Assembly: GCA_964607285.1 (NCBI GenBank)
Contig: CAZSJW010000001.1
Location: 2,514-66,513 of the forward strand
Reading direction: 5' to 3'
Length of the DNA: 64,000 nt
DNA from: an uncultured Pseudomonadales bacterium
Lineage (GTDB): Bacteria; Patescibacteriota; Microgenomatia; UBA1400; PJMF01
Positions 3,004-34,920 of this stretch are shown here, piece by piece. The notes under the pieces were generated by a model. That model saw nothing but the letters and a program-made list of their open reading frames with translations. It searched no databases and was not told where the DNA came from. Both the position numbers and the translations under genes were made by a program. The first letter of the stretch is position 1. Every line of letters begins with the position of its first letter.

Positions 3004-3747
3004 ATGACTGACTCTGACACACAAAGAATTGCAGCCATGCGTGAAGGTGGTAAGCGTCTCGGTGTGGTCAAACATAGTCTAGAAGAGTTTACCCAGATTG
3101 GCATGTCTTTTGAGGAAATCGAGGCCGAAGCGCAGCGACTCATAGCTGAGGCTGGAGCTGTTCCAAACTTTTCACTTGTCCCTGGGTACCACTGGGCGAC
3201 ATGTATCATGCGAAATGATGAGCTTTGCCATGGAATACCAAAGGGCAAAACTGTGCGCGATAGTGACGTAGTCACTATCGATGTTGGTCTTTTGCATGAG
3301 GGATTCAATCTTGACACAACCACCACATTTATCGTGGGAAGTGCTGACAAAACTACTGCATCATTTGTAGCTAGAGGCAGAGAGATACTGGACGCAGCAA
3401 TTTTTCAGGCTGTGCTTGGGAACTCTGTCTATGATATTAGCAAGGAGATGGAGCGAGGACTGAATCGGTATGACTATGGAGTGGTATACCAACTCACAGG
3501 TCATGGCATTGGCACTCAGTTGCACATGGAGCCTAGCGTCCCTGTTTTTGCAGATTCATCTAGCAAAAAGCACAAACTTTTCCTAGGTCAGACACTAGCT
3601 ATAGAGGTAATGTACACTGCAGGTTCGCCAGAGTTGGTTGAGGATTCAGACGGTTGGACATATAGAACAAAAGATGGCTCACTTAGCGGCATGTTTGAGG
3701 AGACTGTGCTGGTCACAAAGGATGGGCCAGAAGTTTTGACAAAATAG
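3004..3747 (+). CDS. map: Methionine aminopeptidase type I
   Basis: 247 aa with pita-bread fold motifs (DVVTIDVG, HGIGTQLHMEP, ETVLVT); canonical operon position. Confidence 0.92.
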   Translation: MTDSDTQRIAAMREGGKRLGVVKHSLEEFTQIGMSFEEIEAEAQRLIAEAGAVPNFSLVPGYHWATCIMRNDELCHGIPKGKTVRDSDVVTIDVGLLHEGFNLDTTTTFIVGSADKTTASFVARGREILDAAIFQAVLGNSVYDISKEMERGLNRYDYGVVYQLTGHGIGTQLHMEPSVPVFADSSSKKHKLFLGQTLAIEVMYTAGSPELVEDSDGWTYRTKDGSLSGMFEETVLVTKDGPEVLTK

Positions 3748-4247: not shown

Positions 4248-4577
4248 ATGGGTAAAGTCCAAGACCACAAGCGCTCGGCAAAAGCTAAGCGTCAAGTGGA
4301 CAACACCAGCCAGAAATCAGACCGCGATGATCGCTTCGAGGTCGAAGGTGTGGTGGAGGAGTGTTTGCCCAACACCATGTTCCGAGTCAAGATCACCGAC
4401 TCGACAGTCGAGCAAATGAAAGATCGTGTGCTCCTGGGTACATTAGTAGGCAAGATGCGGTTGTTTCGCATCCGAGTCATGCCTGGTGATCAAGTCAGAG
4501 GTTATGTATCTAAATATGACCTCAATAAGTGTAAAATTACCTTTAGATCAACGAAAAGTGGCTCGCAGTCAATTTAG
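4248..4577 (+). CDS. infA: Translation initiation factor IF-1 with N-terminal extension
   Basis: EVEGVVEECLPNTMFRVKI...GKMRLFRIRVMPGDQVRGYVSKYDLNKCKITFR matches the IF-1 S1-like fold motifs. The track ORF start at 4206 would place the promoter-like element inside the CDS. Confidence 0.82.
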   Translation: MGKVQDHKRSAKAKRQVDNTSQKSDRDDRFEVEGVVEECLPNTMFRVKITDSTVEQMKDRVLLGTLVGKMRLFRIRVMPGDQVRGYVSKYDLNKCKITFRSTKSGSQSI

Positions 4578-4652
4578 TACTTTGCAATTTACCAGATCTG
4601 AGGTATATTTCACTTCTGTCCAAATCCCGCACGGAGCGGAAAGAAAACAATC

Positions 4653-4766
4653 ATGAAAGTAAGATCGTCAGTCAAAAAAATGTGCATTCACTGCAAAATG
4701 ATTAAACGCAGAGGTGTCTTGCGCGTTATTTGCCAAGACCCTAAGCATAAGCAACGTCAAGGATAA
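4653..4766 (+). CDS. rpmJ: 50S ribosomal protein L36
   Basis: 37-aa [40 protein letters not shown] with the C-x2-C...C-x4-H zinc ribbon of L36. It is below the ORF-track length cutoff and in canonical position. Confidence 0.85.
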
Positions 4767-4769
4767 CCT

Positions 4770-5180
4770 ATGCCTCGTATAGTTGGTGTCGACATTCCAG
4801 AACAAAAAAAAGTGTTTTACGCACTGCAGTCTATATTTGGTGTTGGTCCAAAGATTGCAGCAGATATCATTCGTGAGACTCAGATCAATGGTGATAAGCG
4901 CGCTCGTGAGTTGACGACAGATGAAGTAAACCGTATTCAAAGAGTGATTGAGAAGTTTTTAGTTGAAGGTGATCTTCGCCGTGATATTAATGATACTATT
5001 GATCGTTTGAAACGCATTCGCTCATACCGAGGTATGCGCCATGTAGCGCACTTACCAGCTCGTGGACAGAGAACTCGTTCTAACGGACGCACTGCCCGAG
5101 GTGGTGGCCGCCGCAGAACAGTTGGAGCTATGACAAAGGAAATGGCAGCAAAGCTTGACGCAGCCAAGACTACTAAGTAA
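4770..5180 (+). CDS. rpsM: 30S ribosomal protein S13
   Basis: MPRIVGVDIP...GVGPKIAADII...RSYRGMRH signature. Confidence 0.93.
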   Translation: MPRIVGVDIPEQKKVFYALQSIFGVGPKIAADIIRETQINGDKRARELTTDEVNRIQRVIEKFLVEGDLRRDINDTIDRLKRIRSYRGMRHVAHLPARGQRTRSNGRTARGGGRRRTVGAMTKEMAAKLDAAKTTK

Positions 5181-8169: not shown

Positions 8170-8685
8170 ATGGCACTCAAGCTTAGTAAGAAAAACACTA
8201 AAGTTCAAAAAGTTGTAAAAAAAGCTACACCAGTAGCGCAAAAATCAACTCGTAGTTCTGGCGCAGTTCGCTCGCAGGTCACGCTCCCAACTGGCCAATA
8301 TACTGAGGGTGTAGGTCGCCGAAAGGTAGCAACTGCTCGTGTTCGTATTTACGAGGGTATGGGTGATTTTGTAGTCAATGGCCGTGTGGTGGGTGAGTAC
8401 TTTGCAACTGTTCCTTCTGCTACTCTTCGATATCTCCAAGCATTTGAAGTAACTGGTACCAAAGGCAAGTTTGCAGTTAGTGCAAAAGTGTCAGGCTCAG
8501 GTCCCTCAGCTCAATTGGATGCAGTCGTACATGGCTTATCTCGTGCGTTAGTAAAGTTCAATGGTGAATACCGTGGTTTGCTTAAAACAGCAGGCCTTCT
8601 GACTCGTGATGACCGCATGAAAGAGACTCGAAAAATCGGTATGGGTGGTAAAGCTCGCCGAAAACGACAGTCACCAAAGCGATAA
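8170..8685 (+). CDS. rpsI: 30S ribosomal protein S9 with K-rich N-terminal extension
   Basis: C-terminal GGKARRKRQSPKR and GRRKVATARVRI motifs. Confidence 0.92.
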   Translation: MALKLSKKNTKVQKVVKKATPVAQKSTRSSGAVRSQVTLPTGQYTEGVGRRKVATARVRIYEGMGDFVVNGRVVGEYFATVPSATLRYLQAFEVTGTKGKFAVSAKVSGSGPSAQLDAVVHGLSRALVKFNGEYRGLLKTAGLLTRDDRMKETRKIGMGGKARRKRQSPKR

Positions 8686-23562: not shown

Positions 23563-24132
23563 TTAGGAGGACGGCTCGAACCAGAAGGTGGCACCTGTGT
23601 CCCACCCTCTCGCATAGTAGTCGTTGTAAGCCAGTTGCCAGCTAGGGTGAGTGTTTAGCTCACCTCCAACATCCACAACATGGTTTCCGCTGACATTCGG
23701 ACACGGATTTTCGTTCGGAATTTCTGAGTGAGGAGGCACTGGCCAAGCCACGCCACCTGTGCAGTATCCCGCGGGGGGTTGCATGGGGCCTGAAAACAGT
23801 ATCGGGAGAAAAATCACATTTGTGCCTCCCTGCATAGGCTCGAACCAGAAGGTGGCACCTGTGTCCCACCCTCTCGCATAGTAGTCGTTGTAAGCCAGTT
23901 GCCAGCTAGGGTGAGTGTTTAGCTCACCTCCAACATCCACAACATGGTTTCCGCTGACATTCGGACACGGATTTTCGTTCGGAATTTCTGAGTGAGGAGG
24001 CACTGGCCAAGCCACGCCACCTGTGCAGTATCCCGCGGGGGGGGTCACTGTTCCGCCCTGCCCATGCACAACAAGGGCAGTCAGCAGTGAAAAGAAAAAA
24101 ACAAGCATAGTCATTGTCAACTTGCGTTCCAT
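23563..24132 (-). CDS. Secreted Cys-rich protein made of two identical 88-aa repeats
   Basis: Signal peptide MERKLTMTMLVFFFSLLTALVVHG, then PPAGYCTGGVAWPVPPHSEIPNENPCPNVSGNHVVDVGGELNTHPSWQLAYNDYYARGWDTGATFWFEP twice. GC-richer than the neighbouring genes. Confidence 0.7.
   Translation of the reverse strand: MERKLTMTMLVFFFSLLTALVVHGQGGTVTPPAGYCTGGVAWPVPPHSEIPNENPCPNVSGNHVVDVGGELNTHPSWQLAYNDYYARGWDTGATFWFEPMQGGTNVIFLPILFSGPMQPPAGYCTGGVAWPVPPHSEIPNENPCPNVSGNHVVDVGGELNTHPSWQLAYNDYYARGWDTGATFWFEPSS
23573..24044. repeat. Perfect tandem duplication: two copies of ~206 bp at 264-bp period
   Basis: 23573-23778 is identical to 23837-24042. The copies differ only in a homopolymer G-run (6 G at 23773-23778 versus 8 G at 24037-24044). 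Confidence 0.9.
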
Positions 24133-24527
24133 TCGTATCTACCTCCACTTACACCAGCCATCCCAATCCCCGAAGTGGGGCGGGTAGGCGTGGCGATCGA
24201 GCACTTTTCCAGAGAAAAGAACCCCATCACCACGCCCGAGGCGTGCGTTTGCGGGAGGTGCAACCATAGGAACGAGCCATAGGCAGCACAACTAATTCGA
24301 GTCGCAATATACCACTTGTTAACGAACAATCATCGAGAACTGGAGCGGAATGGTTCAGCAGGCAGCAATTGCCTGGAAACAGTCACGCGCCAGGGTGCCA
24401 ATCACTTGGCAGCGTGTATTATACCCCTATAGACTTATAACGTCAATATTATAGGTTCATACATGCAGTTTGACTCCAGGCTAAATATGATGTAAAATAA
24501 CCAAATAAGTATTGAAATGGAGATTAT

Positions 24528-24791
24528 ATGAAAATTGAAACTATGTCCACACCACTCGCTGCTTTATTTGTAGCTGTAGCTATCGCTGCAACCGCAGGTT
24601 TAGCTTACACTGCTGCTCAACAGCAGATGCGAAACCAAGCTGTGGAGAGTTGTTTCCGCGCTGGTATGGTGGAGTCTGTCCGCGAAGGCGAAGGAGAGAC
24701 TAAAGAGCTAAAAATCACTGAGCCAGTTCGTGAAATCTACACATACTGCTTGCAAGACAAGGGGTATACCTCTGTCATTCAGGGTAAGTAG
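24528..24791 (+). CDS. Hypothetical small exported or membrane protein
   Basis: 87 aa with an N-terminal hydrophobic segment; GGAG RBS 7 nt upstream. Confidence 0.45.
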   Translation: MKIETMSTPLAALFVAVAIAATAGLAYTAAQQQMRNQAVESCFRAGMVESVREGEGETKELKITEPVREIYTYCLQDKGYTSVIQGK

Positions 24792-25708
24792 GTATCCCTG
24801 GGATCTAAAGTCGGATCAGTTTTTTCTAACACCACACTGAAGGGTGATGTCCCGCTGTAGTGTTTTGCGTCCATCATGGCGTATGCTTCTAGTTCGTACC
24901 CAGTAGTTAGATCCATAATTTGCTCGTACAGGGTATTAAATTTGCCTCGGAGGTATCTTAGTGGTAAAGCTAGAACCAAACTGATTGAGATTGCCCCTAA
25001 AGCCGAGGGGTTTGTAAGTGCTTGCTCAGCGATGGCAAAACCTGAGATAAATGCAGCTCCCGTGAAAGCCGCAAAGGTTTTGAGACGAAACTCTAAAATT
25101 CTACGATGAGCCTGTTTCATTTCTTTTGTTGGCCCTTTGACCCTTTGTATTAGATGTTGCCGTTCATGTCTCCACATTGCATCGAGAAGTTGTCGGAAAT
25201 ATTGGGGTTTATATTCCTCTGGTAAGTTTCTAGGAAAAAATAGTCGGTGTGTATGAGGCGTCCCTTTGGTAAACAGTGAATACAGAGATAGAATGTCAAA
25301 CTGCATTTTTGGTTCTGTTAGTAGCAACCGGTGATTCAATTTATCAACTTGATCTGCTGCAGACATTAGTATTGGTACGTCCAACTTTAGAATCTGGTTT
25401 GCGTGTTCAGTATCATTGGACATCACACCAGCTTTAATGCTGCGCACTAGCTCGGATTGATTTGTTTGGCTGCTAATGATCGGTACAAAGGTGTCCGAAA
25501 TCCGTTCCGCTTCAGCCTCTGATAGACCTTGTCGAATTGCTTCTGCTTTGAGGTCTGCTCTCATGCGTGCAGTATCGATTCTGATAATTGCATGTGCTTC
25601 GGAAATCTGTATACCAATCTCGTATACTCGATCCTTCAGGAGCTCAGTCACTTGCTTTTCAGAGATGTGTCGTTGTGTTGAGCCCTCACTTGGATTTTTT
25701 TCTGACAT
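24779..25708 (-). CDS. Hypothetical protein (309 aa) with a C-terminal TM pair; intact copy of a tandem paralog family
   Basis: Contains LDAMWRHERQHL and ELEAYAMMDAKHYSGTSPF segments shared with the downstream frameshifted copy. No family recognised. Confidence 0.55.
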   Translation of the reverse strand: MSEKNPSEGSTQRHISEKQVTELLKDRVYEIGIQISEAHAIIRIDTARMRADLKAEAIRQGLSEAEAERISDTFVPIISSQTNQSELVRSIKAGVMSNDTEHANQILKLDVPILMSAADQVDKLNHRLLLTEPKMQFDILSLYSLFTKGTPHTHRLFFPRNLPEEYKPQYFRQLLDAMWRHERQHLIQRVKGPTKEMKQAHRRILEFRLKTFAAFTGAAFISGFAIAEQALTNPSALGAISISLVLALPLRYLRGKFNTLYEQIMDLTTGYELEAYAMMDAKHYSGTSPFSVVLEKTDPTLDPRDTYLP

Positions 25709-25747
25709 ACTACAATGAGTATACAGGAAACCGTGGTAGTTAGAACT

Positions 25748-26724
25748 TTAACTAAAGTATTTTTTGTGAGGATCCATGTTCGGATCAGCTTTTTCAAGCC
25801 GAACAGTGAATGGTGAGTTGGCTCTGTGGTGTTCTGCAGTCATCATGGCGTAGGCCTCAATTTCTTCGTTACTTAGCAAGTTTAGCGCTCTGTCACTAAT
25901 CATACTCACAAGTATGCTAACTGGCATAGCTAGTCCAATTGAGACGTTTACACTTGGAGGTAGCTGAAGATTCAGCAAAGACAATCCAGTAGAAGCCCAA
26001 GAAAGAAACAAAGCACCTTTAAAGACGGAGCGCATTAGGTTAGCAATTTTACGATGTCTAATATGTGAATCTGTGATTCCCTTATCCTTCTCTGGCTTTA
26101 AGTATTGCACTAAATGCTCACGCTCGTGTCGCCACATCGCATCCAGTGCTTGCTTGATGTACTGAGTTTTCATTTCTGGAGGCAGCGTATCTTTGGGAAA
26201 AACCACACGAACAGAACTTAGTGCATGTTTGCTAAATAAGGAGTGTATGCTGATGATATCAGGACTTACTTTAGCCGAGCGTAGTTGAAATCGATGATTG
26301 AAACGAGTCTCTTTTCAAATGTTTCGAGTATCCCTTCCCAGTCAAATCCGAGCATTGAGCCAAGCTCAGCAACTTTTCTTACGAATGTCCCTTGGTCTTG
26401 CTCATTTTTTCCAGGTCTTCGTCTTTGATTAAAAAGTACAATATTGTCTCTACCAATTATTGGGAAAAAAAGTTTTGCTGCTAGTTCTGCCCTGGGCTCA
26501 GAAACCCCTTGCTGTATAGCATACTCGTAGAGATCCTGGCGCATCTTACCTGTATCTACTGAAATAGTTGCGATGTCATCATCAAAGGGTTGGATAAGCT
26601 CATACACTTGATCTTCACCCAGTTCCAGTAGTTCCTCATCTGTGATTTCCTGAGGTCTGACAGGAGCGATATCTAAAGTATTTGGATGTAAAGTATCTGT
26701 AGAATGTGTCTCATCGTAGTTCAT
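25748..26724 (-). pseudogene. Frameshifted tandem paralog of the 24779-25708 gene (split into two 152-aa ORFs)
   Basis: ORF 26266-26724 aligns to the N-terminal half of the 309-aa paralog. ORF 25748-26206 aligns to its C-terminal half. The downstream frame stays open upstream of its GTG start and reads ...DIISIHSLFSK..., matching DILSLYSLFTK in the intact copy. This indicates a frameshift near 26265-26300. Confidence 0.55.
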
Positions 26725-26841
26725 AGTTGTTTATCCCTATTGTTTGGGAACTATCCAGATACCAGCGTAGCATACGCAACAGAGCTTGAGAAGCCAACAC
26801 TGACTTGCGGAAACGGTGATAAATCAGCATACTGTGAGCAG

Positions 26842-28986
26842 ATGCCCAAATCAGTTCCACAGTTGCTCAGGAAATCACTTAGTTCCCTATTGTTTCACTT
26901 GCCTGTGATTGTGTTGGGCATGTTTTTAGCAGCGTGGTTTACATTCCCTGCTATCACCCAACTGCGAACACACTTCATCGGTGATGGTGGAGATAACTAC
27001 CAGTACGCAGGTTTTCAGTACCTAGTAGCTACTAACATCGATTCTGGCAAGTGGCCGTATGCTGCTTTGCAGAGTTGGTACTATCCAAATGGTTTTGAGT
27101 TTGCTCGTGGGTATGACAGTGTTTTGTCTACACTGGGTGGTGGGTTGTTGGTTTTGTTGACTAGGGATTTAGCCTATAGCTATAACTTAAGCATCCTCTT
27201 CTCCTTCCTTTTCAATTTTTTAGCAGCATACGCGCTGTATTGGAATCTGAGCCGCTCTCGGATGTGGGCAAGTGTGGGTGCGGTGCTGTTTGGTTTCTCG
27301 TTTTATGCACTCGCACGGGCGGGGGGGCATGCGAACTTGTTGCTGATTGGTGGGTTTCCCTTATTCCTTTTGAGTCTGCTGCAGTTGCTACGTAAACAAG
27401 AGTGGCGAGCGGTGCTTCTGTTGGGTTTGGCTAGTATTTTGCTAGTGTTTAGTTCTTTACAGTACGCGCTAATGGCAGTGGCAAGTTTATTGATCGGTAT
27501 ACCACTGGTTGCATTAGTGTATCCAGAAGCAATGGGGGCAGTGCTGTTCAAAAAAATACCAGCTGCGTTTTTGCAGTTAGCGGTCGTAGGATTGTTTGTG
27601 TGTGTGGTGGCTGCACCATTTGTTTGGCCATTTATCCATGCATATCAGGCACAGGATTTTTATCAGCGAGGCGAGTTCGACTTTAGTCCTCGTATGGTGG
27701 ATTTATTGCTGCCAAACCCATATTTTCCTGTTCCCTTGAGTTCGCTATTACCAGTTGTTCCTGGTACGGTGGGGATTGAACAGACGATTGCGCTTGGACC
27801 TGTATTTTTTGTGTTGATTGTTTTTTTGCTGTGGAGGTTTCGCAGGCAGCATGTAGTGGGCTTAGCGGGTTTGGTGCTCACGGTATTTGGCATTTTGGCA
27901 CTAGGCACGCGTAACCCTGAGACAGGCATCATCTTGCCTTACCACTTGCTGAGTTCGGTCTTCCCATTTTCGGCAATTCCTGAGGCTGGTCGGTTTGTGG
28001 TGGTTATGAATGTTGTAGGTGGGGCATTGATTGCATCATATGGCAAGAAGATTTTTCGAGGGCGGGCAGCTCGTGTGTCACTTGGGATGTTTGTCTTAGT
28101 TTTGCTCATTCTTGAACGGTCAAGTTGGGGCAAGTTCTTTCAGCTGCCAGTACCGAGTTTGGGGTTAGCGCAAGCAGTGCAGGCACAACCAGGTGCTGCA
28201 GTCTTGGAGCTGCCACTGTTTGAGCAGCGACAAAGTGTCTCACCTGTGTACTTCCACAAAGCTACCCTCACTGGAGAACCGCACTGGCTGGCGCATACTC
28301 CCCAGGCTATGGCTTTTTTGCAGGGTAATCCTGCGCTGGCGGGGTTGACGTGTTTTGATCGCACGCATTTGACAGGGACGGTGCCAGGGCAAGGTTTGAG
28401 CATTAGCACAGAGGAGCGCGCAGCCTTTTTCAAGTACCTCAAAACTGCAGGTGTTCAAACTGTGGTGATCCGCAGGGATGGAACGCTGTACTGGGATATG
28501 TGTCGTGAAACACTTGCACGGATTGATCAACTTTTCCCACAGTATCTTACTGCTGAAATCACTGCGCAGGGAGCACAGTCAGAGACGCAGATGTTTTGGA
28601 GTGGAGAGGCGTTCACTGGTGGGCTGTACTTCCCAAGTAGTGGAGCTTTAACTATTCATGGCTTTTCCTATATGCCCTATGATGAGCAACCAGAATTGAG
28701 GATTGATGGTCAACAGGTGTCTGCTGAGCAGTGGAGCTATGAAGTTTCAACGCATGAGAGCGGGGAGCGAATGGTCTTTGTTCGTACAGGCGCAGCTGGT
28801 GAGCGACACCAGGTATCTGCTGGAGCTACGCTGGAAACGACTATTGCTAAAACGCCGCAACACCGGGGGGTGCTGACACTTTGGTACACGTATGAGCCAG
28901 TGGGTGCTGAAGAGCTACAGCTACAGGATGGAGTAGTTACAAAAGTGTATGAGGAGTCGGCTGTGGAGGTGTGGCGGATTGAGTGA
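26842..28986 (+). CDS. Large polytopic membrane protein (~715 aa), possible GT-C-like glycosyltransferase
   Basis: About 12 TM helices. Acidic first loop FIGDGGDNYQYAGFQYL...WPYA. Soluble C-terminal domain. The track start at 26704 overlaps the upstream gene; ATG 26842 is preferred. Family assignment is weak. Confidence 0.55.
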   Translation: MPKSVPQLLRKSLSSLLFHLPVIVLGMFLAAWFTFPAITQLRTHFIGDGGDNYQYAGFQYLVATNIDSGKWPYAALQSWYYPNGFEFARGYDSVLSTLGGGLLVLLTRDLAYSYNLSILFSFLFNFLAAYALYWNLSRSRMWASVGAVLFGFSFYALARAGGHANLLLIGGFPLFLLSLLQLLRKQEWRAVLLLGLASILLVFSSLQYALMAVASLLIGIPLVALVYPEAMGAVLFKKIPAAFLQLAVVGLFVCVVAAPFVWPFIHAYQAQDFYQRGEFDFSPRMVDLLLPNPYFPVPLSSLLPVVPGTVGIEQTIALGPVFFVLIVFLLWRFRRQHVVGLAGLVLTVFGILALGTRNPETGIILPYHLLSSVFPFSAIPEAGRFVVVMNVVGGALIASYGKKIFRGRAARVSLGMFVLVLLILERSSWGKFFQLPVPSLGLAQAVQAQPGAAVLELPLFEQRQSVSPVYFHKATLTGEPHWLAHTPQAMAFLQGNPALAGLTCFDRTHLTGTVPGQGLSISTEERAAFFKYLKTAGVQTVVIRRDGTLYWDMCRETLARIDQLFPQYLTAEITAQGAQSETQMFWSGEAFTGGLYFPSSGALTIHGFSYMPYDEQPELRIDGQQVSAEQWSYEVSTHESGERMVFVRTGAAGERHQVSAGATLETTIAKTPQHRGVLTLWYTYEPVGAEELQLQDGVVTKVYEESAVEVWRIE

Positions 28987-29033
28987 GTGTGGTAGTATGT
29001 GATGAGTATAGTGTTTTGTGTAAAGGAGCAGAT

Positions 29034-29261
29034 ATGAACCAGTATAAGGAAATGTATTCAGCAACAATGCAGCGGCATGCTAATATGGTACTCAATGACT
29101 GGCTGATGAACCCAGAAACTCCGTTGGAGAAAATTCAAGAAGAAGAAGGTCAAATTAAATTAGCAATAGCCCGTGTTGAAAGAGGGGAAGTGACTTCTGA
29201 GCACAAAGTTGAGGAGTTGAAGCAGCGGTATACTGCTGTTTTGGGGGTGAATTGGAGTTAG
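29034..29261 (+). CDS. Hypothetical small protein
   Basis: ORF MNQYKEMYS...; charged and helical; translationally adjacent to the preceding gene. Confidence 0.35.
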   Translation: MNQYKEMYSATMQRHANMVLNDWLMNPETPLEKIQEEEGQIKLAIARVERGEVTSEHKVEELKQRYTAVLGVNWS

Positions 29262-29313
29262 CTTTATTGTGTAGACTTGTGTGGCTTTAGCACTCATAGA
29301 TCAGAAATCGTAA

Positions 29314-29397
29314 CAAAAAACCCCCTCATCATTGCTGATGAGGGGGGCTAAACTACGGCTTCTACTGGTGTAGCGAGTGAGCCAGAACTACGAACTT
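29314..29397 (-). ncRNA. Candidate small RNA (~85 nt) with a near-consensus sigma-70-type promoter and intrinsic terminator
   Basis: Minus strand: -35 TTGTCA (plus 29426-29431), 16-nt spacer, -10 TATAAT (plus 29404-29409), then about 85 nt ending in the 29321-29347 hairpin plus T-run. No ORF of reasonable quality. Internal hairpins such as CUAC-ACCA-GUAG. Confidence 0.35.
29321..29347 (-). terminator. Intrinsic terminator; the T-run is on the minus strand
   Basis: CCCCCTCATCA-TTGC-TGATGAGGGGGG hairpin. The plus strand has an A6 run upstream, which is a T6 run after the hairpin on the minus strand. Confidence 0.55.
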
Positions 29398-29512
29398 CTT
29401 AAAATTATACTAAATTTCTATTGCCTGACAATTAGTGAATTCCAGGCTCTAGTCAGTTGTGGAGGCGACCCCGCCATGGCGGGGCAAGCCAGAGTTCGTA
29501 GTTCTGGCTCTA
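29377..29512. repeat. 18-20 bp perfect inverted repeat pair spaced ~100 bp apart, flanking the candidate sRNA promoter (MITE-like or RNA stem)
   Basis: GAGCCAGAACTACGAACT at 29379-29396 is the reverse complement of AGTTCGTAGTTCTGGCTC at 29493-29510. A perfect palindrome CCCCGCCATGGCGGGG lies inside at 29469-29484. Confidence 0.8.
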
Positions 29513-29903
29513 CACCGGTAGCGCCCCCACAGCTGACAGGTGTAGTGTATTTTCTGATCTTTACGCAAACTGTAGCGTTCTTGTTGCAGCAAGTGCTTTT
29601 GTGGCATGCACTGGTGTTTGATCTGTTGCAAACTTTTGGGTTTTCAACTTGGTGGTGATGTTATTACGCGGTTGTAGCAGAGCAGTTTAGCTTACTGGAA
29701 ATTGAAGGGTTGGTTGATAAAACAGTTTAACTAGCGTATGAGCGTTGTAGTTCATTTCAGCTATGATGGACATTTTGTGGTGTGGTGAGAATGTTGAGGA
29801 TTGGGATAAGATTAATAGTGGGTGTATTGGCAAAAAGGGGATTGTGGTGGAGGAAGTAAAGAAAAAGTTGAGATTGTAGAGGTTTTTGAGCATGATGAGG
29901 CAA

Positions 29904-29933
29904 TAAAAAGCCCGTCTTGGGGACGGGCTTTTC
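29904..29933 (-). terminator. Rho-independent terminator after the 29951-30604 gene; near-identical to the 23511 terminator
   Basis: AAAAGCCCGTC-TTGGGG-ACGGGCTTTT, compared with AAAAGCCCCTC-TTGGGG-GAGGGGCTTTT at 23511. Confidence 0.6.
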
Positions 29934-29950
29934 AGTGAGTGTTATGGGGG

Positions 29951-30604
29951 CTACGGTGAGGAAAACAAAGCAATCTTGGTCACGAATTCCTGAAACCAGG
30001 TAGCACAAAGTACATTTCGCGACAAAGCTTGTTCAGCGTATGTCACACAATAACTTGTGCGTTGCTCTGATGTCAGGAGTTGCTCGGCTCGCTGGAATGC
30101 CCATGCGAGGTGTTCTGGCGTGATATAGGACTGGTGCGGGTTCAATCCCGCAGTAGCCAATCCATTCACACTTTCACACTGCACAACGAGGGGGTGACCC
30201 AGGGCCACGTTCCCCTCGTCTAATTTCCAAACGCTTCCGTTGACCCATCCCGTTCGGTCGGCCATAGCATCAACTTCTGCGCGTCCGTTGGCTTGGCACG
30301 CGCTGTGTGCATTTGCTGGGTTGGTCGAGCCGCCCCAGGGGCCGATAACCAGGACAGTGGCGTTTTCCAGGCATTGCCAATTGTCCTTGGTAGATGTGGT
30401 TACACCCGCTCCAGACTCGTTTGTACCCTGGTAAACCAGGGCGTCTTGACCTGTACAAACGCGTTCGGTAAACACCCCAGGTGTTCCTGGGGCGGGGTCA
30501 GGAGACCCCGATTGCGCCTGTGCGGCTGGCGCGACCGGTCCAAGCAGGACAACGGCTAAAATGGCACCCAAAATGAGGCCAAGGACGATTTGATAGCGCT
30601 TCAT
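29951..30604 (-). CDS. Secreted Cys-containing hypothetical protein (GC-rich gene)
   Basis: Start ATG 30604 has AAGGAG 8 nt upstream. Signal peptide MKRYQIVLGLILGAILAVVLLGPVAPAAQA. G/A/P-rich with 8 Cys. The track's longer ORF extends upstream with no support. Confidence 0.6.
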   Translation of the reverse strand: MKRYQIVLGLILGAILAVVLLGPVAPAAQAQSGSPDPAPGTPGVFTERVCTGQDALVYQGTNESGAGVTTSTKDNWQCLENATVLVIGPWGGSTNPANAHSACQANGRAEVDAMADRTGWVNGSVWKLDEGNVALGHPLVVQCESVNGLATAGLNPHQSYITPEHLAWAFQRAEQLLTSEQRTSYCVTYAEQALSRNVLCATWFQEFVTKIALFSSP

Positions 30605-31289
30605 CGTTTTAAACTCCTTACTAGCGCAAACGTTAAATGACCTTTTCGTAGTCATCACGCCTATGCCTCTTTGCCATTTCTGGCAAGTCTGACATAGGAC
30701 CCTGCGCCCAAAGCACCTCGCTCGCTGCAACAAACTTGCAGACGGAACAAAGCCTTTAGCCACACGATCCTATGCCAAACATAGAGACAGTACGCTTTGA
30801 GGAGCACTGTATTTGGTAGCCGATGTGGTTTCCCACATCTTATTCCCACTTTTTAAAGAACAATCACTGGGCAAGGGTTGATGGTAGTCGAACGGCACAC
30901 GAGGTGACGCTCGAGCAGCTATCTAGCTTGCTCTTATCAGCAGTTATGCGAACAATCATTTGGCAGCAATTGCCAATGGTTTTTCGCGGTGAACCACTGG
31001 TATCAAGAAGAAACTTCTTGACACGTGTTTCAGTCCAAACTGGGGGGAGAGAAAGAAAGGGTGGACGGAAACAACTGTCAATAAGTCTGAGAGTCATGTC
31101 GTGCGTGGCCGCAACGTAAGTGCCATCAGGGGTGAAATTGATTCGAGCGATGGCAGAGCTCGAAGCTACATAAGGCATACGTATTACTAGATAGTACTAT
31201 AGCACAATTGGGCAGTGGTGTCAATGTTATGGGACTTTATCTTGTAGAGAATTTTTGTTAGAAAGAGAGTACTTTCTTCGGACACATAC

Positions 31290-32951
31290 ATGCAGTATCA
31301 TAGCTTTATGACAAACTTTGAATGGGAACCTGAGTGGGAAGATGAGGTGGAGCCAACACCTCCTGTTGTAATGACAAAACGACAGTTTTTACTGGATGCA
31401 GTCAGAACTGCAGCAGCAGTGGGTCTAGGTGCTGCTTTTGGTTACCCACTTGGCAGGTATGGGACTACTTCTCAAACGGAGCATCCAGACGCATCGGTAC
31501 CCCCTGTGGCTCAGGTTGATGCTCGTTTACAATCCTCATATCCTGAAACATATAGTTCGTACAAAGAGTATAGCTTTACCCCTCCAGAGAATATGCGGGC
31601 AGTGGCTGGCAATGGCAATTACGCACAGGAGGTGCAGCGCCGAGATCAGACGAACACGAGTGACAAGGGTATGTTTGACTCTGAACTGTTGAATACCCCA
31701 GATGGAGTGCCACATCAGCGCATTTTTTGCGAAGCCAAAAATAGAAAGACGGGGGAAGTAGAACGAGTACTTGTGTTGGATACTGATTGGTTCAGGGGTT
31801 TTCCTATCAGCATACAAAGAGCAAAGGTCTCACCAGACGGACGACTCATGCTGTTTTGGGGGACGCGGACCCTTGCAAGTATTGGTGGTGTGGATACAGT
31901 ACTACCAATACTAGAACCTAGTTCAAGTGATGATACACAGACACAAATCTGTATTGCCATGAAAATTTCTGATGCCCCTGCGCATACTCCTAAATTTACA
32001 ATACTAGGCAGTGATGCTACATATGCGTTTGACTCTCAGGGAGTGATTCATTCGCTAGAGACGACTCAATCATACACCATTGGTTTCTTTGGTGTACCAG
32101 AGCATAGAAATGAAGTAATACCAGCATTTTGTAAGCGGACAGCGCGAGATACTGTTTCTGGGTATTACGATCTTCAGTCTGAAGCGGGGACTACTTTTAC
32201 ATCAAAAGTTCAATTTGCTGAATCATTACTGCAGTCTACTCTGGGAGTTAGCAGTGAGTACAAGTTTGTTGGAGTGAGTACCCAGGTACCCCCAAGGCGA
32301 TTTTATGATCAACGGTTTGCAGTTTCGCCTGATGGGCTCGTTCTTGCAGTGAACACGAGGTCAGTCTTTTTCTTCGACCAGCAAACAGCAAGTTCAAAGT
32401 CGTCAGTGTCTTGTATTAGAAATTTGGGGTCAACTGGGAGCAATTCTGACTTTACCGTTGTGACAGCTTTCGATTACCCTGAAATTTTTGATCTTCGGGG
32501 AGCTGTCCAAGCGCAGGATGTTGAGTTGGTTGGAGTCCTTCCTGATGGAAAGTTTGTAGTTGCGTATGCGGTACAGAGACCGCTAGATGCTATGTACATG
32601 GGCACTGAAGTTCGCGCTTTAGGTGTTGTTACGCCTGTCCCTGTATGGGAACATCCCAATGGGTATACATTATCCTTAATTGTAATAGAAGGTGAAGTAG
32701 ATGCTGTGGTGCAGAAGGCTGGACATTTTGCTTTGACGCTTCGCAGTGGTGAAGTGGCACAGTTTCCAGAGAGTGCACTACAATCAGCACTAAAACCTGG
32801 ATCAATGTATTCGTTACACCCAGAAAAGGGTCCTAGTGCTCTGAAAAAAATTGGATACTTAGGTCTGGTCTTGCCCAGTTCTCCCAGTGAGGAAATGGCT
32901 CCCCCTGTTCCTAGACCTGCACCCAGGCGTTACTGGGAATCAGTAACATAG
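31290..32951 (+). CDS. Hypothetical exported or anchored protein (553 aa)
   Basis: N-terminal acidic segment, then TKRQFLLDAVRTAAAVGLGAAFG hydrophobic signal or anchor. Beta-rich body; no family recognised. Confidence 0.55.
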   Translation: MQYHSFMTNFEWEPEWEDEVEPTPPVVMTKRQFLLDAVRTAAAVGLGAAFGYPLGRYGTTSQTEHPDASVPPVAQVDARLQSSYPETYSSYKEYSFTPPENMRAVAGNGNYAQEVQRRDQTNTSDKGMFDSELLNTPDGVPHQRIFCEAKNRKTGEVERVLVLDTDWFRGFPISIQRAKVSPDGRLMLFWGTRTLASIGGVDTVLPILEPSSSDDTQTQICIAMKISDAPAHTPKFTILGSDATYAFDSQGVIHSLETTQSYTIGFFGVPEHRNEVIPAFCKRTARDTVSGYYDLQSEAGTTFTSKVQFAESLLQSTLGVSSEYKFVGVSTQVPPRRFYDQRFAVSPDGLVLAVNTRSVFFFDQQTASSKSSVSCIRNLGSTGSNSDFTVVTAFDYPEIFDLRGAVQAQDVELVGVLPDGKFVVAYAVQRPLDAMYMGTEVRALGVVTPVPVWEHPNGYTLSLIVIEGEVDAVVQKAGHFALTLRSGEVAQFPESALQSALKPGSMYSLHPEKGPSALKKIGYLGLVLPSSPSEEMAPPVPRPAPRRYWESVT

Positions 32952-32954
32952 CAG

Positions 32955-34391
32955 TTACTCTCTGGTTTCACTTGGTTTGATTAACACACTGCCACCAGCG
33001 GGCATGCCGCCTTGGGCGAGTCGGCAAAGTTTGAGAAACTCTTCTGGAGTTTTGGCATTTCGCAACTCAGATGTATGCTGTGATATGTAGGTAAGTTCTA
33101 GTGCTCGCTGATTTCGGTCAATGTTGTTGAGTGGATGAGAAGGAATTGTGAGCCCAAGTGCTTGCACGATTAATTTGAGTTCTTGAGGAGCGGTACGAAA
33201 ATCGTCCGAGAGTTCCTCATATTCTTGCCATCCAGCGTTCAGCTTGTTGGACAACAGTACTGTCTGCATAGCTTCATCTGCGGTCATGTAGAGTAATTTT
33301 CCTACAATTTTAGGATTATGAGAGTGTTCCACTATCTCTAGGCGAAGAAGTGTCCCATGCGGTTGCAGGGCGTTGTTGTCATGCAACAAGCTGACCGCAA
33401 ATGTGCACTGAGGTTGGGATACGTCATCGGCATCTACTTTGGGTAGTTGTACCACTAGTTCAAGATGGGGCGCATCCACAGGTGTAGCTAAGCTCTCATC
33501 CGCACTTTCTCGTACCAAAAGTTTTTGAGTGAGAAGTTCGCAAAAATGGGCAATAGCACTGAGTCGGTGATGTTCTGCCACCAGATCGTACCCCTTATGC
33601 CAAACTTCATAAATGTTTTGCTGCACTTGATCTAGATCTTTGAGCAGGTTGTGTTGCACGAGGTGGACATACAAGGCTAGAAAGTTTTGTAGAAGCTGGG
33701 GTTCGCCCAGTACAATATTGCTTAATCGGGCATTTGCCTCTTTGTTTGTAACCACAATACAGTCACTTTCCTCAATGCCTTCACCTACACGGATGGAGTA
33801 TCCATAGCCACCTGGTAATGGTTCAAGGTAGGGTTGCTGGAGTTTTGCGTGTTCTAGTTTGGTTGGATCAAGCAAGTACTCTGAGGGGTCCATAAACGGT
33901 GAGTTTCTGTCCCAATCTAACTGGGCAGCCTGCATGAGCTGTGTGTTGAATCGGCGGAGCAGCTTTGCGGGCGAGTACTCGCTAGGTACGTTGCCATATT
34001 GGTTGAGTGCGTGTTTTCTGATTTTTTGCTCATCGCTTTGTGTGAGCAAGTGCGCCAAGATTGTCTGCAACTGATCGGGTTTGCCAGTTCTATACAGATC
34101 AGTTGCTGTCACAAGGTCAACATACATCGTGTAGACCCAAGGGTTTTCTGGAACGGTGACTTCAGATACGAGAGCGATGAGTGCCTGAGGCATAATGGAA
34201 TCAGATAGTTGCAGCACCTCTGTGACCAAGGCTGTGTAGACCTCAGATAGTGGGTAGTTTCTCCAGCGAACGTTTGGGTACAAGATACGCAGTGGTACAG
34301 GTATGACTTGTCGTAGTTCAGTAATGAGTCTCTTGCTCTCTGCTTCGGCTATGCGGTGGAAGAGTCCTTCTGGATTGGTGGATGGGTGCAT
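32955..34391 (-). CDS. Hypothetical cytoplasmic protein (478 aa)
   Basis: Long ORF with no TM segments and no recognised motif; convergent with the previous gene. Confidence 0.55.
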   Translation of the reverse strand: MHPSTNPEGLFHRIAEAESKRLITELRQVIPVPLRILYPNVRWRNYPLSEVYTALVTEVLQLSDSIMPQALIALVSEVTVPENPWVYTMYVDLVTATDLYRTGKPDQLQTILAHLLTQSDEQKIRKHALNQYGNVPSEYSPAKLLRRFNTQLMQAAQLDWDRNSPFMDPSEYLLDPTKLEHAKLQQPYLEPLPGGYGYSIRVGEGIEESDCIVVTNKEANARLSNIVLGEPQLLQNFLALYVHLVQHNLLKDLDQVQQNIYEVWHKGYDLVAEHHRLSAIAHFCELLTQKLLVRESADESLATPVDAPHLELVVQLPKVDADDVSQPQCTFAVSLLHDNNALQPHGTLLRLEIVEHSHNPKIVGKLLYMTADEAMQTVLLSNKLNAGWQEYEELSDDFRTAPQELKLIVQALGLTIPSHPLNNIDRNQRALELTYISQHTSELRNAKTPEEFLKLCRLAQGGMPAGGSVLIKPSETRE

Positions 34392-34459
34392 GTGTAAGAT
34401 TTGTTAAAACTAAACAACCTCCAAGAATGGAGGTTGTTTCATGTTCGTATCAGTAGTAC

Positions 34460-34807
34460 TTAACTCAGTGAGCGTTTTAGTAAAAACGCACCTGCACCAG
34501 AGCCGATGCTGAATACAGCAGCAGCTGAGGTTTGGAAATCGAGAGCTGTGTCCACAGGAGTGTGCTTTTTACCGAGGACTTGGCCTTGGCGGAAAGTAAC
34601 TTTCTGTTTCTGCTCTGCTGATTGCTCACCTTTTGCTTTACATTCGGTTGTCTGACCGTATGCGCCAACCTTACATTCGAGTTCGATAGTTTGGTTTAGC
34701 TTCTGCTCTTGCTCTACAGTGTTGTTTGTAGCCTGGGCTTGGGTGGCAAATCCAGACATCACTAGTGCAGCAGTTGCGATTGCAAATGAGAGTTTTAGTA
34801 TGTTCAT
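34460..34807 (-). CDS. Hypothetical small secreted protein
   Basis: Signal peptide MNILKLSFAIATAALVMSGFATQAQA; 115 aa; K/E/Q-rich. Confidence 0.45.
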   Translation of the reverse strand: MNILKLSFAIATAALVMSGFATQAQATNNTVEQEQKLNQTIELECKVGAYGQTTECKAKGEQSAEQKQKVTFRQGQVLGKKHTPVDTALDFQTSAAAVFSIGSGAGAFLLKRSLS

Positions 34808-34920
34808 AAACGATCCTTTTAGATCTACTTGTATCGAGTAGATGGGATTGTACCGCAAGAATGTCTTATTGTCAATAGTTATAGGGTGTTTTGTGCGGAA
34901 GCGTTACAGATGAGCGTTTA

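Follow-up and report, generated by a model that had tools for sequence, protein, structure and literature searches.

What is encoded by a short stretch of non-coding DNA, in the genome of an uncultured member of the Patescibacteria, in which a promoter and a terminator on the same strand are combined with a pair of inverted repeats? A sequence-only reading of the window (the whole stretch of 64,000 nucleotides of DNA analyzed here) had proposed a candidate small RNA (sRNA) and, for the repeats around it, either a MITE-like element carrying an outward promoter or a long-range RNA stem in read-through transcripts. Of these, the candidate sRNA stands as a prediction from sequence and the MITE alternative is left without support. 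Based on the evidence presented below we propose that the locus is a credible but unconfirmed candidate sRNA gene, and we judge it rather probable that an RNA is made from its minus strand. What such an RNA might do is a more tentative matter, for which we consider an antisense switch acting on the tail of a convergent operon alongside several alternatives.

A predicted minus-strand small RNA

The predicted RNA is defined by the following features:

29404..29431, minus strand: sigma-70-type promoter with an 11/12 match to the consensus, located in the 96-bp segment between the arms of a foldback
29315..29346, minus strand: intrinsic terminator with an 11-bp stem (29346-29336 / 29331-29321), a 4-nt GCAA loop and a T6 run (29320-29315)
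29315..29397, minus strand: predicted ~83-nt non-coding RNA (5' AGUUCGUAGUUCUGGCUC...), delimited by this promoter and terminator

The promoter, which had already been recognized in the sequence-only reading, consists of a -35 box TTGTCA (29431-29426) and a -10 box TATAAT (29409-29404) separated by a 16-nt spacer. Sites matching at least 11 of the 12 consensus positions occur four times in the 64-kb window, against 1.43 expected from shuffles; each of the remaining three lies 5' of a minus-strand gene, and one of them is conserved 5' of the orthologue in a relative (L021), which suggests that canonical promoters of this kind are used by the organism. Weaker promoter-like and terminator-like matches are found at shuffle frequency genome-wide. 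The strong hairpin and T6 run, likewise correctly described earlier, constitute the top-ranked terminator-like site in each of three 20-kb scans (~60 kb), scans in which intrinsic terminators showed no overall enrichment in this genome. In the ~60 kb neither the promoter nor the terminator has a stronger counterpart. Seven of the 11 base pairs of the terminator stem are G-C, and the hairpin by itself has a predicted energy of -22 kcal/mol. The plus-strand side of the hairpin lacks a U-tract, so the convergent operon is not expected to stop there. By arithmetic from the density of such promoters in the window, the 150 nt upstream of this terminator would contain an 11/12 match on the same strand with a chance of ~0.002.

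The start of the RNA was placed 7-8 nt past the -10 box (~29396-29398) and its 3' end at the T6 run (~29315), which gives ~83 nt in place of the ~85 nt of the earlier reading; no plausible ORF was found within it. Its predicted fold has a minimum free energy of -28.3 kcal/mol (z -3.1), with the 5' ~13 nt unpaired. As in a typical intergenic sRNA gene, the predicted promoter and intrinsic terminator lie on one strand with no ORF. A covariance-model scan against Rfam (4227 models), which had been suggested as a check, recovered no family match to the element either at gathering thresholds or with E-values up to 10, the best local scores of 16-25 bits (versus thresholds of 39-100) all being due to the terminator hairpin. 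Likewise, RNAduplex comparisons with 60 translation-initiation regions returned no trans target, the best value (-38) being equivalent to the shuffled-query mean (-37). The candidate thus shares with promoter/terminator-paired intergenic sRNA genes the near-consensus sigma-70 promoter, the Rho-independent terminator 50-80 nt downstream, the intergenic location, the lack of an ORF and the single-stranded 5' end; it differs from them in lacking conservation in relatives, an Rfam family and an identifiable trans target, and in that its 5' 18-30 nt are mirrored upstream of its own promoter. Overall, the sRNA prediction is reasonable.

The promoter lies in the loop of a foldback

The mirrored sequence is part of a larger structure, the components of which are as follows:

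29357..29396, no strand: left arm A (core 29379-29396, bulge 29374-29378, outer block 29362-29373, GGC 29357-29359)
29493..29525, no strand: right arm A' (core 29493-29510, outer block 29510-29521, GCC 29523-25)
29469..29484, no strand: perfect 16-bp palindrome CCCCGCCATGGCGGGG, ~80 bp upstream of the start site
29453..29468, no strand: segment B, containing GGAGG (29461-29465) and pairing with B'
29522..29560, plus strand: segments B' (29522-29537) and X3 (29536-29545), and a U-rich tract (29546-29560)
29476..29658, plus strand: 60-aa ORF (MAGQARVRSSGSTPVAPPQLTGVVYFLIF...WW), with GGAGG-N10-ATG; status uncertain

At the center of the foldback is a perfect inverted repeat (29379-29396 / 29493-29510); the complementarity to 29493-29510 noted earlier is indeed perfect (100%), and extends over 18 nt rather than the 20 nt first given. 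Nowhere in the window do perfectly matching arms up to 1.5 kb apart reach a greater length, and the 18-mer of the arm occurs three times at up to 3 mismatches versus 0.03 expected. Moving outward, the repeat continues through a 5-nt bulge into 12-nt arms (29362-29373 / 29510-29521, 11/12 paired) and then GGC/GCC, making up a foldback of 169 bp (29357-29525) with a ~33-bp imperfect stem and a folding energy of ~-102 kcal/mol (z ~-9) on either strand. The inner 18 bp of the arms are identical, whereas the outer 16 bp are alike at only ~11/16 positions. The stem has one informative imperfect pair, read as a G-U wobble on the plus strand and as a C-A mismatch on the minus strand, which weakly favors a stem in plus-strand RNA.

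The predicted RNA opens with the 18 nt that make up the core of the left arm, its predicted start (29396-29398) falling on the inner edge of this arm, and the 96-bp inter-arm segment houses both the promoter and the palindrome. The latter, reported earlier as lying between the repeats, is free of mismatches and occurs once in the window; a 6-bp hairpin is made from it in all of the folds, and it includes the ATG of the 60-aa ORF. Constrained folds further revealed B and B' as a 14/16 inverted repeat that is formable only when A:A' is open. In another alternative pairing, the outer half of A' joins X3 in a hairpin of -14.5 kcal/mol that is followed by UGUAUUUUCUGAUCUUU, which in these models amounts to a weak terminator-like alternative on the plus strand. 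A 10-bp repeat farther out (29298-29307 / 29551-29560) is at chance level, with ~0.4 such pairs expected in 900 bp.

Genomic context and comparison with relatives

An independent assembly (L043, GCA_020049755.1, 1476 bp) carries the same sequence across 29327-30802 with one difference, which excludes an assembly artefact. This sole difference, a T>G change at 29495 in the right arm A', breaks a pair and is uncompensated in the left arm. Upstream on the minus strand lies a gene for a 217-aa secreted protein, the true start of which is at 30604 and which is furnished with a terminator of its own:

29901..29937, minus strand: own terminator of the 217-aa secreted-protein gene

As this gene has its own terminator, that of the element is best explained as serving the internal promoter. 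Converging on the element from the other side is a plus-strand operon of genes encoding 760-aa and 92-aa proteins. The 92-aa gene ends at 29261 and has coding-like codon usage; no homologues of it were found outside this organism, and no plus-strand terminator was detected between it and the element. FtsEX, PrfB, DUF4012 and a large number of proteins in which no Pfam domain is recognized are also encoded in the window, a gene content in keeping with the Patescibacteria.

In the nearest relative (L021/L022) the corresponding orthologues of 710 aa and 213 aa (49% and 53% identical to the window proteins, the latter figure being that of the flanking secreted protein) are convergent and abut at a distance of 112 bp, and the element is absent from this syntenic site. 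Since the flanking orthologues abut in this relative, the 92-aa gene together with the 690-bp spacer constitutes a lineage-specific insert of ~0.9 kb. Searches of the relatives' loci with nhmmer, blastn and a covariance model recovered no homologue of the element; the covariance model of the 87-nt unit matched itself, a partial plus-strand mirror (29491-29558, 22 bits) and unrelated terminators. BLAST searches with the 689-bp spacer against phage and plasmid collections yielded no match. Part of the spacer (29650-29900) is almost G-free on the minus strand, with a GC skew of up to +0.9.

The arms resemble the gene for ribosomal protein S9

The sequence of the arms recurs in the organism's own rpsI gene:

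8224..8273, plus strand: rpsI (S9) codons 19-35, with the sequence common to both arms

Two exact in-frame 13-mers, GCTACACCAGTAG and TCGTAGTTCTGGC (codons 19-31, 8224-8262), are common to both arms and rpsI, and two such clustered matches arose in 1 of 20,000 shuffles (p ~5e-5). Beyond these, the resemblance to rpsI continues differently in the two arms: the right one retains CTACACCgGTAGCGC, and the left arm, including its 'bulge', reads ...GGCTCAC-TCGCT where rpsI has GGCGCAGTTCGCT. The reading frame (RSSG, TPVA) is preserved in the arms. Hence, judging from these matches, the arms probably descend from an rpsI-like fragment. The rpsI stretch in question is a variable linker that is present in relatives and is not conserved at the DNA level. 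The S9 protein itself has an N-terminal extension of ~45 residues, common to hundreds of matches, several of them from Patescibacteria.

A possible antisense-driven structural switch

We tentatively favor the interpretation that the locus is a lineage-specific, single-copy sRNA gene, which is cis-antisense to the tail of the convergent operon and which would function, in its full form, as an antisense switch; we hold this with less than full conviction, and regard it as somewhat short of probable. It is based on sequence motifs, their statistical rarity, the geometry of the locus, its alternative folds, its single-copy status and its absence from relatives, from which we infer the synthesis of the RNA, the plus-strand read-through and the whole regulatory consequence.

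In this model, RNA polymerase would initiate at ~29397 on the minus strand, from the near-consensus promoter in the loop of the 169-bp foldback, and would halt ~83 nt further on at the strong intrinsic terminator. Plus-strand read-through transcripts are likely, given that no terminator intervenes between the 92-aa gene and the element, and on the same grounds transcripts of the operon (the 760-aa and 92-aa genes) would cross the sRNA gene in antisense; because they would do so, the sRNA would be a cis-antisense RNA to the 3' tail of the operon. In this tail the two arms would lock as the ~33-bp A:A' stem. A long-range stem in read-through transcripts had been raised as one possibility in the sequence-only reading, and our predictions are in line with it: in the fold of the plus-strand RNA, A:A' has a probability of ~1.0 when free, and as modeled any such transcripts would be physically bound to form it. 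Once the sRNA had paired with arm A, A' would be released and may join B/B' and X3 in a new fold, the end of which is right at the U-rich tract. Consistent with this, blocking 29315-29397 in silico gave B:B' (29453-68 / 29522-37) and a closing helix that ends at 29546, directly preceding UAUUUUCU / UAUUUUCUGAUCUUU (the U-rich tract); the simple A':X3 hairpin is not the minimum-energy fold. The outcome would be an antisense-driven structural switch of the RnaG/pT181 type, resulting in termination or processing, to which transcriptional interference from the strong convergent promoter would be added.

Antisense-induced transcription attenuation has precedents in RnaG/icsA of Shigella and the countertranscripts of pT181/pIP501 (PMC2879508). 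The present locus shares with these systems a strong opposite-strand promoter inside another transcript, a short RNA that ends at a terminator and can pair with one side of a long intramolecular stem, the appearance (here in silico) of a hairpin beside a U-tract when that side is blocked, and a convergent layout that permits transcriptional interference (PMC2879508). It differs from them in that the sense RNA corresponds to a 3' tail, not to a 5' leader, with no evident downstream gene, and in that the alternative terminator is weak and multi-branched, the whole arrangement being recognized here through sequence and folding. That this plus-strand terminator is weak, non-canonical and unreported by the terminator scan counts against the switch. 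Furthermore, there is no credible plus-strand gene downstream to regulate, the region 29560-29900 containing only short, doubtful ORFs. The lack of conservation in relatives and the uncompensated T>G change at 29495 are likewise to be counted against this interpretation; the lack of other copies and of conservation in related genomes, as we find it, makes up one half of what the sequence-only reading had said would tell against its proposal.

Alternative interpretations

Instead of being part of a switch, the arms could be relic repeats of a solo or decayed Correia-type MITE-like foldback with an outward promoter, the RNA being a by-product that happens to meet a terminator; we consider this unlikely. 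The element has the form expected of a MITE, in that a short non-coding sequence is enclosed by terminal inverted repeats (169 bp, with ~33-bp imperfect repeats) and a promoter reads out across one arm, and it is located in the ~0.9-kb lineage-specific insert. The Correia repeat enclosed elements and other bacterial MITEs are similarly foldbacks of ~100-170 bp with terminal inverted repeats and an outward promoter, and produce a long dsRNA stem if transcribed through (PMC2649163, PMC10969869); Correia elements are known to create promoters at their ends, and their hairpins are cleaved by RNase III (PMC2649163). Unlike them, the present element is single-copy and lacks both a target-site duplication and a related IS, and the likeness of its arms is to rpsI, a gene of the host, and not to known IS ends.

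The search for further copies of the repeat that had been recommended bears most directly on this interpretation. No second copy was found in the 64-kb window or in ~160 kb of relatives' loci (those with an 87-90% identical S9, or the syntenic region). The exact 18-mer had 20 single matches in 596 Gb of genomes (against ~17 expected by arithmetic) and 16 in a metagenome collection, none of them with a paired arm, and there were no matches in viral contigs. The sole locus with two matches (L001) proved to be an unrelated ~330-bp tandem duplication, and a cluster of 21-nt matches in Atopobiaceae is single-site and unrelated. As some bacterial MITE families are represented by one copy per genome (PMC10969869), this result does no more than weaken the MITE interpretation. 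In addition, neither pair of candidate boundaries (...CTAAACTAC/GGC and GCC/CCCACAGC, or ...GGCTT/CTAC and GTAG/CGCCC) is flanked by a direct repeat that could represent a target-site duplication, and the contrast between the identical inner 18 bp of the arms and their ~11/16 outer parts is more suggestive of constraint or homogenisation than of uniform decay. On the sequence evidence a mobile element is not supported, and the ~136-bp MITE-like element originally outlined gives way to a foldback of 169 bp.

A further interpretation, which we regard as distinctly unlikely, is that the locus has no function, and that promoter-like and terminator-like motifs and a recent inverted duplication coincide in the decaying DNA of the insert. 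It would account for the presence of the element in one organism alone and its lack of conservation, for the resemblance of the flanking spacer (29560-29900) to compositionally odd junk, and for the shuffle-like frequency of the weaker motif matches across the genome. It accounts less well for the rare conjunction, in 215 bp, of the best inverted repeat and the top-ranked terminator with a promoter matching at 11/12, the start site being at the arm edge, or for the perfect preservation of the inner arms next to diverged outer parts. A 690-bp spacer would, moreover, be unusual in a streamlined Patescibacteria genome.

The promoter might alternatively belong to an invertible cassette, the 96 bp bounded by the identical 18-bp arms being turned around by a site-specific recombinase; to this we attach a slight probability. 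In the present orientation the promoter would drive the 83-nt RNA, and the GGAGG-ATG start would read rightwards into the 60-aa hydrophobic ORF. In the flipped orientation transcription from the promoter would run into A' and the weak terminator on the right, and the start codon would be fused in frame to ...VRSSGSLATPVEAVV and a stop (21 aa) just before the left terminator. Several features are in keeping with such an arrangement: the perfect 18-bp arms enclose the promoter and the palindrome together with the Shine-Dalgarno sequence and the ATG, the arms are identical and their extensions diverged, a hairpin and a T-rich tract are found on both outward sides, the reading frame is open through both arms, and the neighboring genes encode secreted or surface proteins. 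A serine recombinase is also present in the window. Partial intragenic invertons have been described (PMC10028968), and fimS, the Bacteroides polysaccharide promoters and the C. difficile switches similarly have a promoter within inverted repeats, for which the identical 18-bp arms seen here are of typical length (PMC11602134, PMC10028968), and adjoin secreted-protein genes. Against this, the same orientation is seen in both available assemblies, with L043 assembling straight through both arms, whereas the established switches are distinguished by an adjacent invertase and a clear ON-state gene; here neither orientation places the promoter before a credible gene. Many inverted-repeat-flanked promoters are, in fact, not invertons (PMC11602134).

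A Pfam scan of the ~37 larger ORFs among the 69 candidate ORFs of the window identified as the only recombinase a 571-aa large serine recombinase (52116-53831), which is encoded 23 kb away beside a tRNA, a setting more typical of integrases than of invertases, the latter being able to act in trans as well. The 96-bp segment is, finally, very short compared with the known switches, and short for inversion as such. We consider the inverton improbable and unsupported.

It is also improbable, in our estimation, that the real gene of the locus is the 60-aa hydrophobic protein, either as an orphan small membrane protein or as a type-I-toxin-like peptide, with the sRNA as its divergent partner and with its ribosome-binding site masked by B:B'. 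The ORF is preceded by GGAGG-N10-ATG and followed by a ~30-residue hydrophobic stretch, and it is annotated as a gene in the NCBI assembly GCA_020049755.1. Yet it has no homologue apart from itself in 1.84 billion representatives, and the 93/60-aa ORF has none outside this organism. Its codon score is ambiguous: at 0.037 it is above 98% of all non-coding frames, but below 96% of true coding chunks, and 17% of the non-coding frames free of stops score as high or higher. On the plus strand, a TATACT -10 box (29406-29411) that overlaps the -10 box of the sRNA could serve the ORF but is not accompanied by a -35 box. In folds of an mRNA without arm A, B:B' is predicted to sequester the Shine-Dalgarno sequence.

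Divergent sRNAs are known from type I toxin-antitoxin loci such as tisB/istR-1, zorO/orzO and shoB/ohsC, in which, as here, a small hydrophobic ORF lies beside a divergent short RNA with which it shares an element (18 nt in the present case). This element is inverted in the DNA of the present locus and the two units are divergent, so the 18 nt would be present in identical, not complementary, form in both the sRNA and the mRNA, which rules out the pairing logic of tisB/istR and zorO/orzO, and with it the usual type I toxin-antitoxin logic; complementarity would arise only if the mRNA of the 60-aa ORF starts upstream of 29315. The ORF also differs from those toxins in lacking homology support and in its ambiguous codon usage. 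The small protein is, in short, improbable and unsupported. Among other identities that we rejected, a retron ncRNA is at odds with the position of the promoter between rather than upstream of the repeats and with the lack of a Pfam reverse-transcriptase domain in the neighboring proteins; for 6S-like RNAs, tracrRNAs and single-strand origins, either the defining partner gene is lacking or the promoter is wrongly placed.

Lastly, part of the organism's own rpsI could have been duplicated in inverted orientation to form the foldback, giving rise to an antisense or sponge circuit directed at the ribosomal protein, an origin from the target gene that would recall that of plant miRNA genes. An RNA reading inward through an arm, be it the plus-strand tail of the convergent operon or a minus-strand read-through, would carry two 13-nt perfect antisense blocks to S9 codons 19-31, and the 83-nt RNA, as a sense copy, would be a decoy or sponge for that antisense. 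The plus-strand arm is in fact the best rpsI duplex partner among ~6400 windows (-41 kcal/mol versus a mean of -21); the promoter-driven RNA bears the sense copy, only the inward-reading RNAs being antisense to the S9 mRNA, and we consider such a circuit very improbable.

Implications for regulatory RNAs in Patescibacteria

As a single unconserved locus in an uncultured organism, the candidate is of moderate-to-low priority as a lead. To our knowledge, the regulatory RNAs of the Patescibacteria (CPR) have been little studied, and an sRNA that is transcribed from a canonical promoter and ended by a canonical terminator, both its own, would, if validated, be a useful anchor for the biology of regulatory RNAs in this group. 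Its architecture is unusual, with a promoter in the loop of a 33-bp foldback, a start site at the arm edge and arms related to rpsI. If these arms are functional, the locus could represent a compact antisense switch, a minimal inverton or the birth of an sRNA from a fragment of a host gene.

Lineage-specific insert around the foldback element

The foldback, a 169-bp inverted-repeat element housing the candidate minus-strand sRNA, lies in a 690-bp spacer that follows an orphan 92-aa gene. Gene and spacer (28983-29900) are missing in L021, the locus of the nearest relative (3586-3698), where 112 bp separate the orthologues of the two flanking genes; hence, the two together constitute a lineage-specific insert of ~0.9 kb. 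Within it, a ~250-nt tract (29650-29900), immediately downstream of the terminator of the minus-strand 217-aa secreted-protein gene, is nearly G-free on the minus strand, with a plus-strand GC skew reaching +0.9. Its composition is reminiscent of decayed DNA or of a Rho-loading (rut) region, C-rich and G-poor.

Two exact 13-mers, GCTACACCAGTAG and TCGTAGTTCTGGC, occur in each foldback arm as well as in codons 19-35 of rpsI (8224-8273, plus strand), in frame and with their order swapped (p ~5e-5 in a shuffle test). The same rpsI stretch showed no conservation in the rpsI DNA of relatives. The arms probably descended from an rpsI-like fragment.

The loop of the 16-bp palindrome between the arms holds the ATG of a small ORF:

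29476-29658, plus strand: 60-aa hydrophobic ORF, with GGAGG-N10-ATG, annotated in the independent second assembly GCA_020049755.1

No homologues of this ORF were found, and its codon usage is ambiguous. Furthermore, a plus-strand TATACT hexamer (29406-29411) overlaps the minus-strand -10 box TATAAT (29404-29409) and could form a bidirectional -10 pair with it (29404-29411 in all); a plus-strand -35 box for TATACT is absent.

Duplications and a recombinase locus elsewhere in the window

A 206-nt stretch occurs twice in direct orientation within a 189-aa secreted-protein gene (23573-24042 for the pair); the copies are 100% identical, lie 264 nt apart and represent a recent internal duplication. 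A paralogous gene pair lies at 24779-25708 and 25748-26206. A further locus combines a recombinase gene with a tRNA gene:

52097-53831 (with tRNA): 571-aa large serine recombinase gene, Resolvase and Recombinase domains

The 3' end of the recombinase gene overlaps the tRNA gene (52097-52170) and a bidirectional hairpin is found nearby (53880-53906); this locus probably marks one boundary of an integrated element.

Minus-strand promoters and a candidate conserved leader

All four promoter matches of at least 11/12 in the window fall on the minus strand at 24-35 kb (24418-34875), a block of higher G+C content (0.45-0.50 vs 0.41-0.44), and three lie upstream of genes for small secreted proteins devoid of Pfam domains. 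The 217-aa gene possesses a long putative leader:

30604-31224, minus strand: leader region of the 217-aa secreted-protein gene (L021 counterpart 4339-4794), conserved block 30845-30884

Near-consensus promoters are situated ~590 nt 5' of its ATG and ~420 nt upstream of its L021 orthologue. Although the two proteins are only 53% identical, their leaders contain a nearly identical ~40-nt block (CATCAACCCTTGCCCrGTGATTGTTC...). Neither leader matched Rfam, and we posit the shared leader as a candidate conserved cis-regulatory leader RNA.
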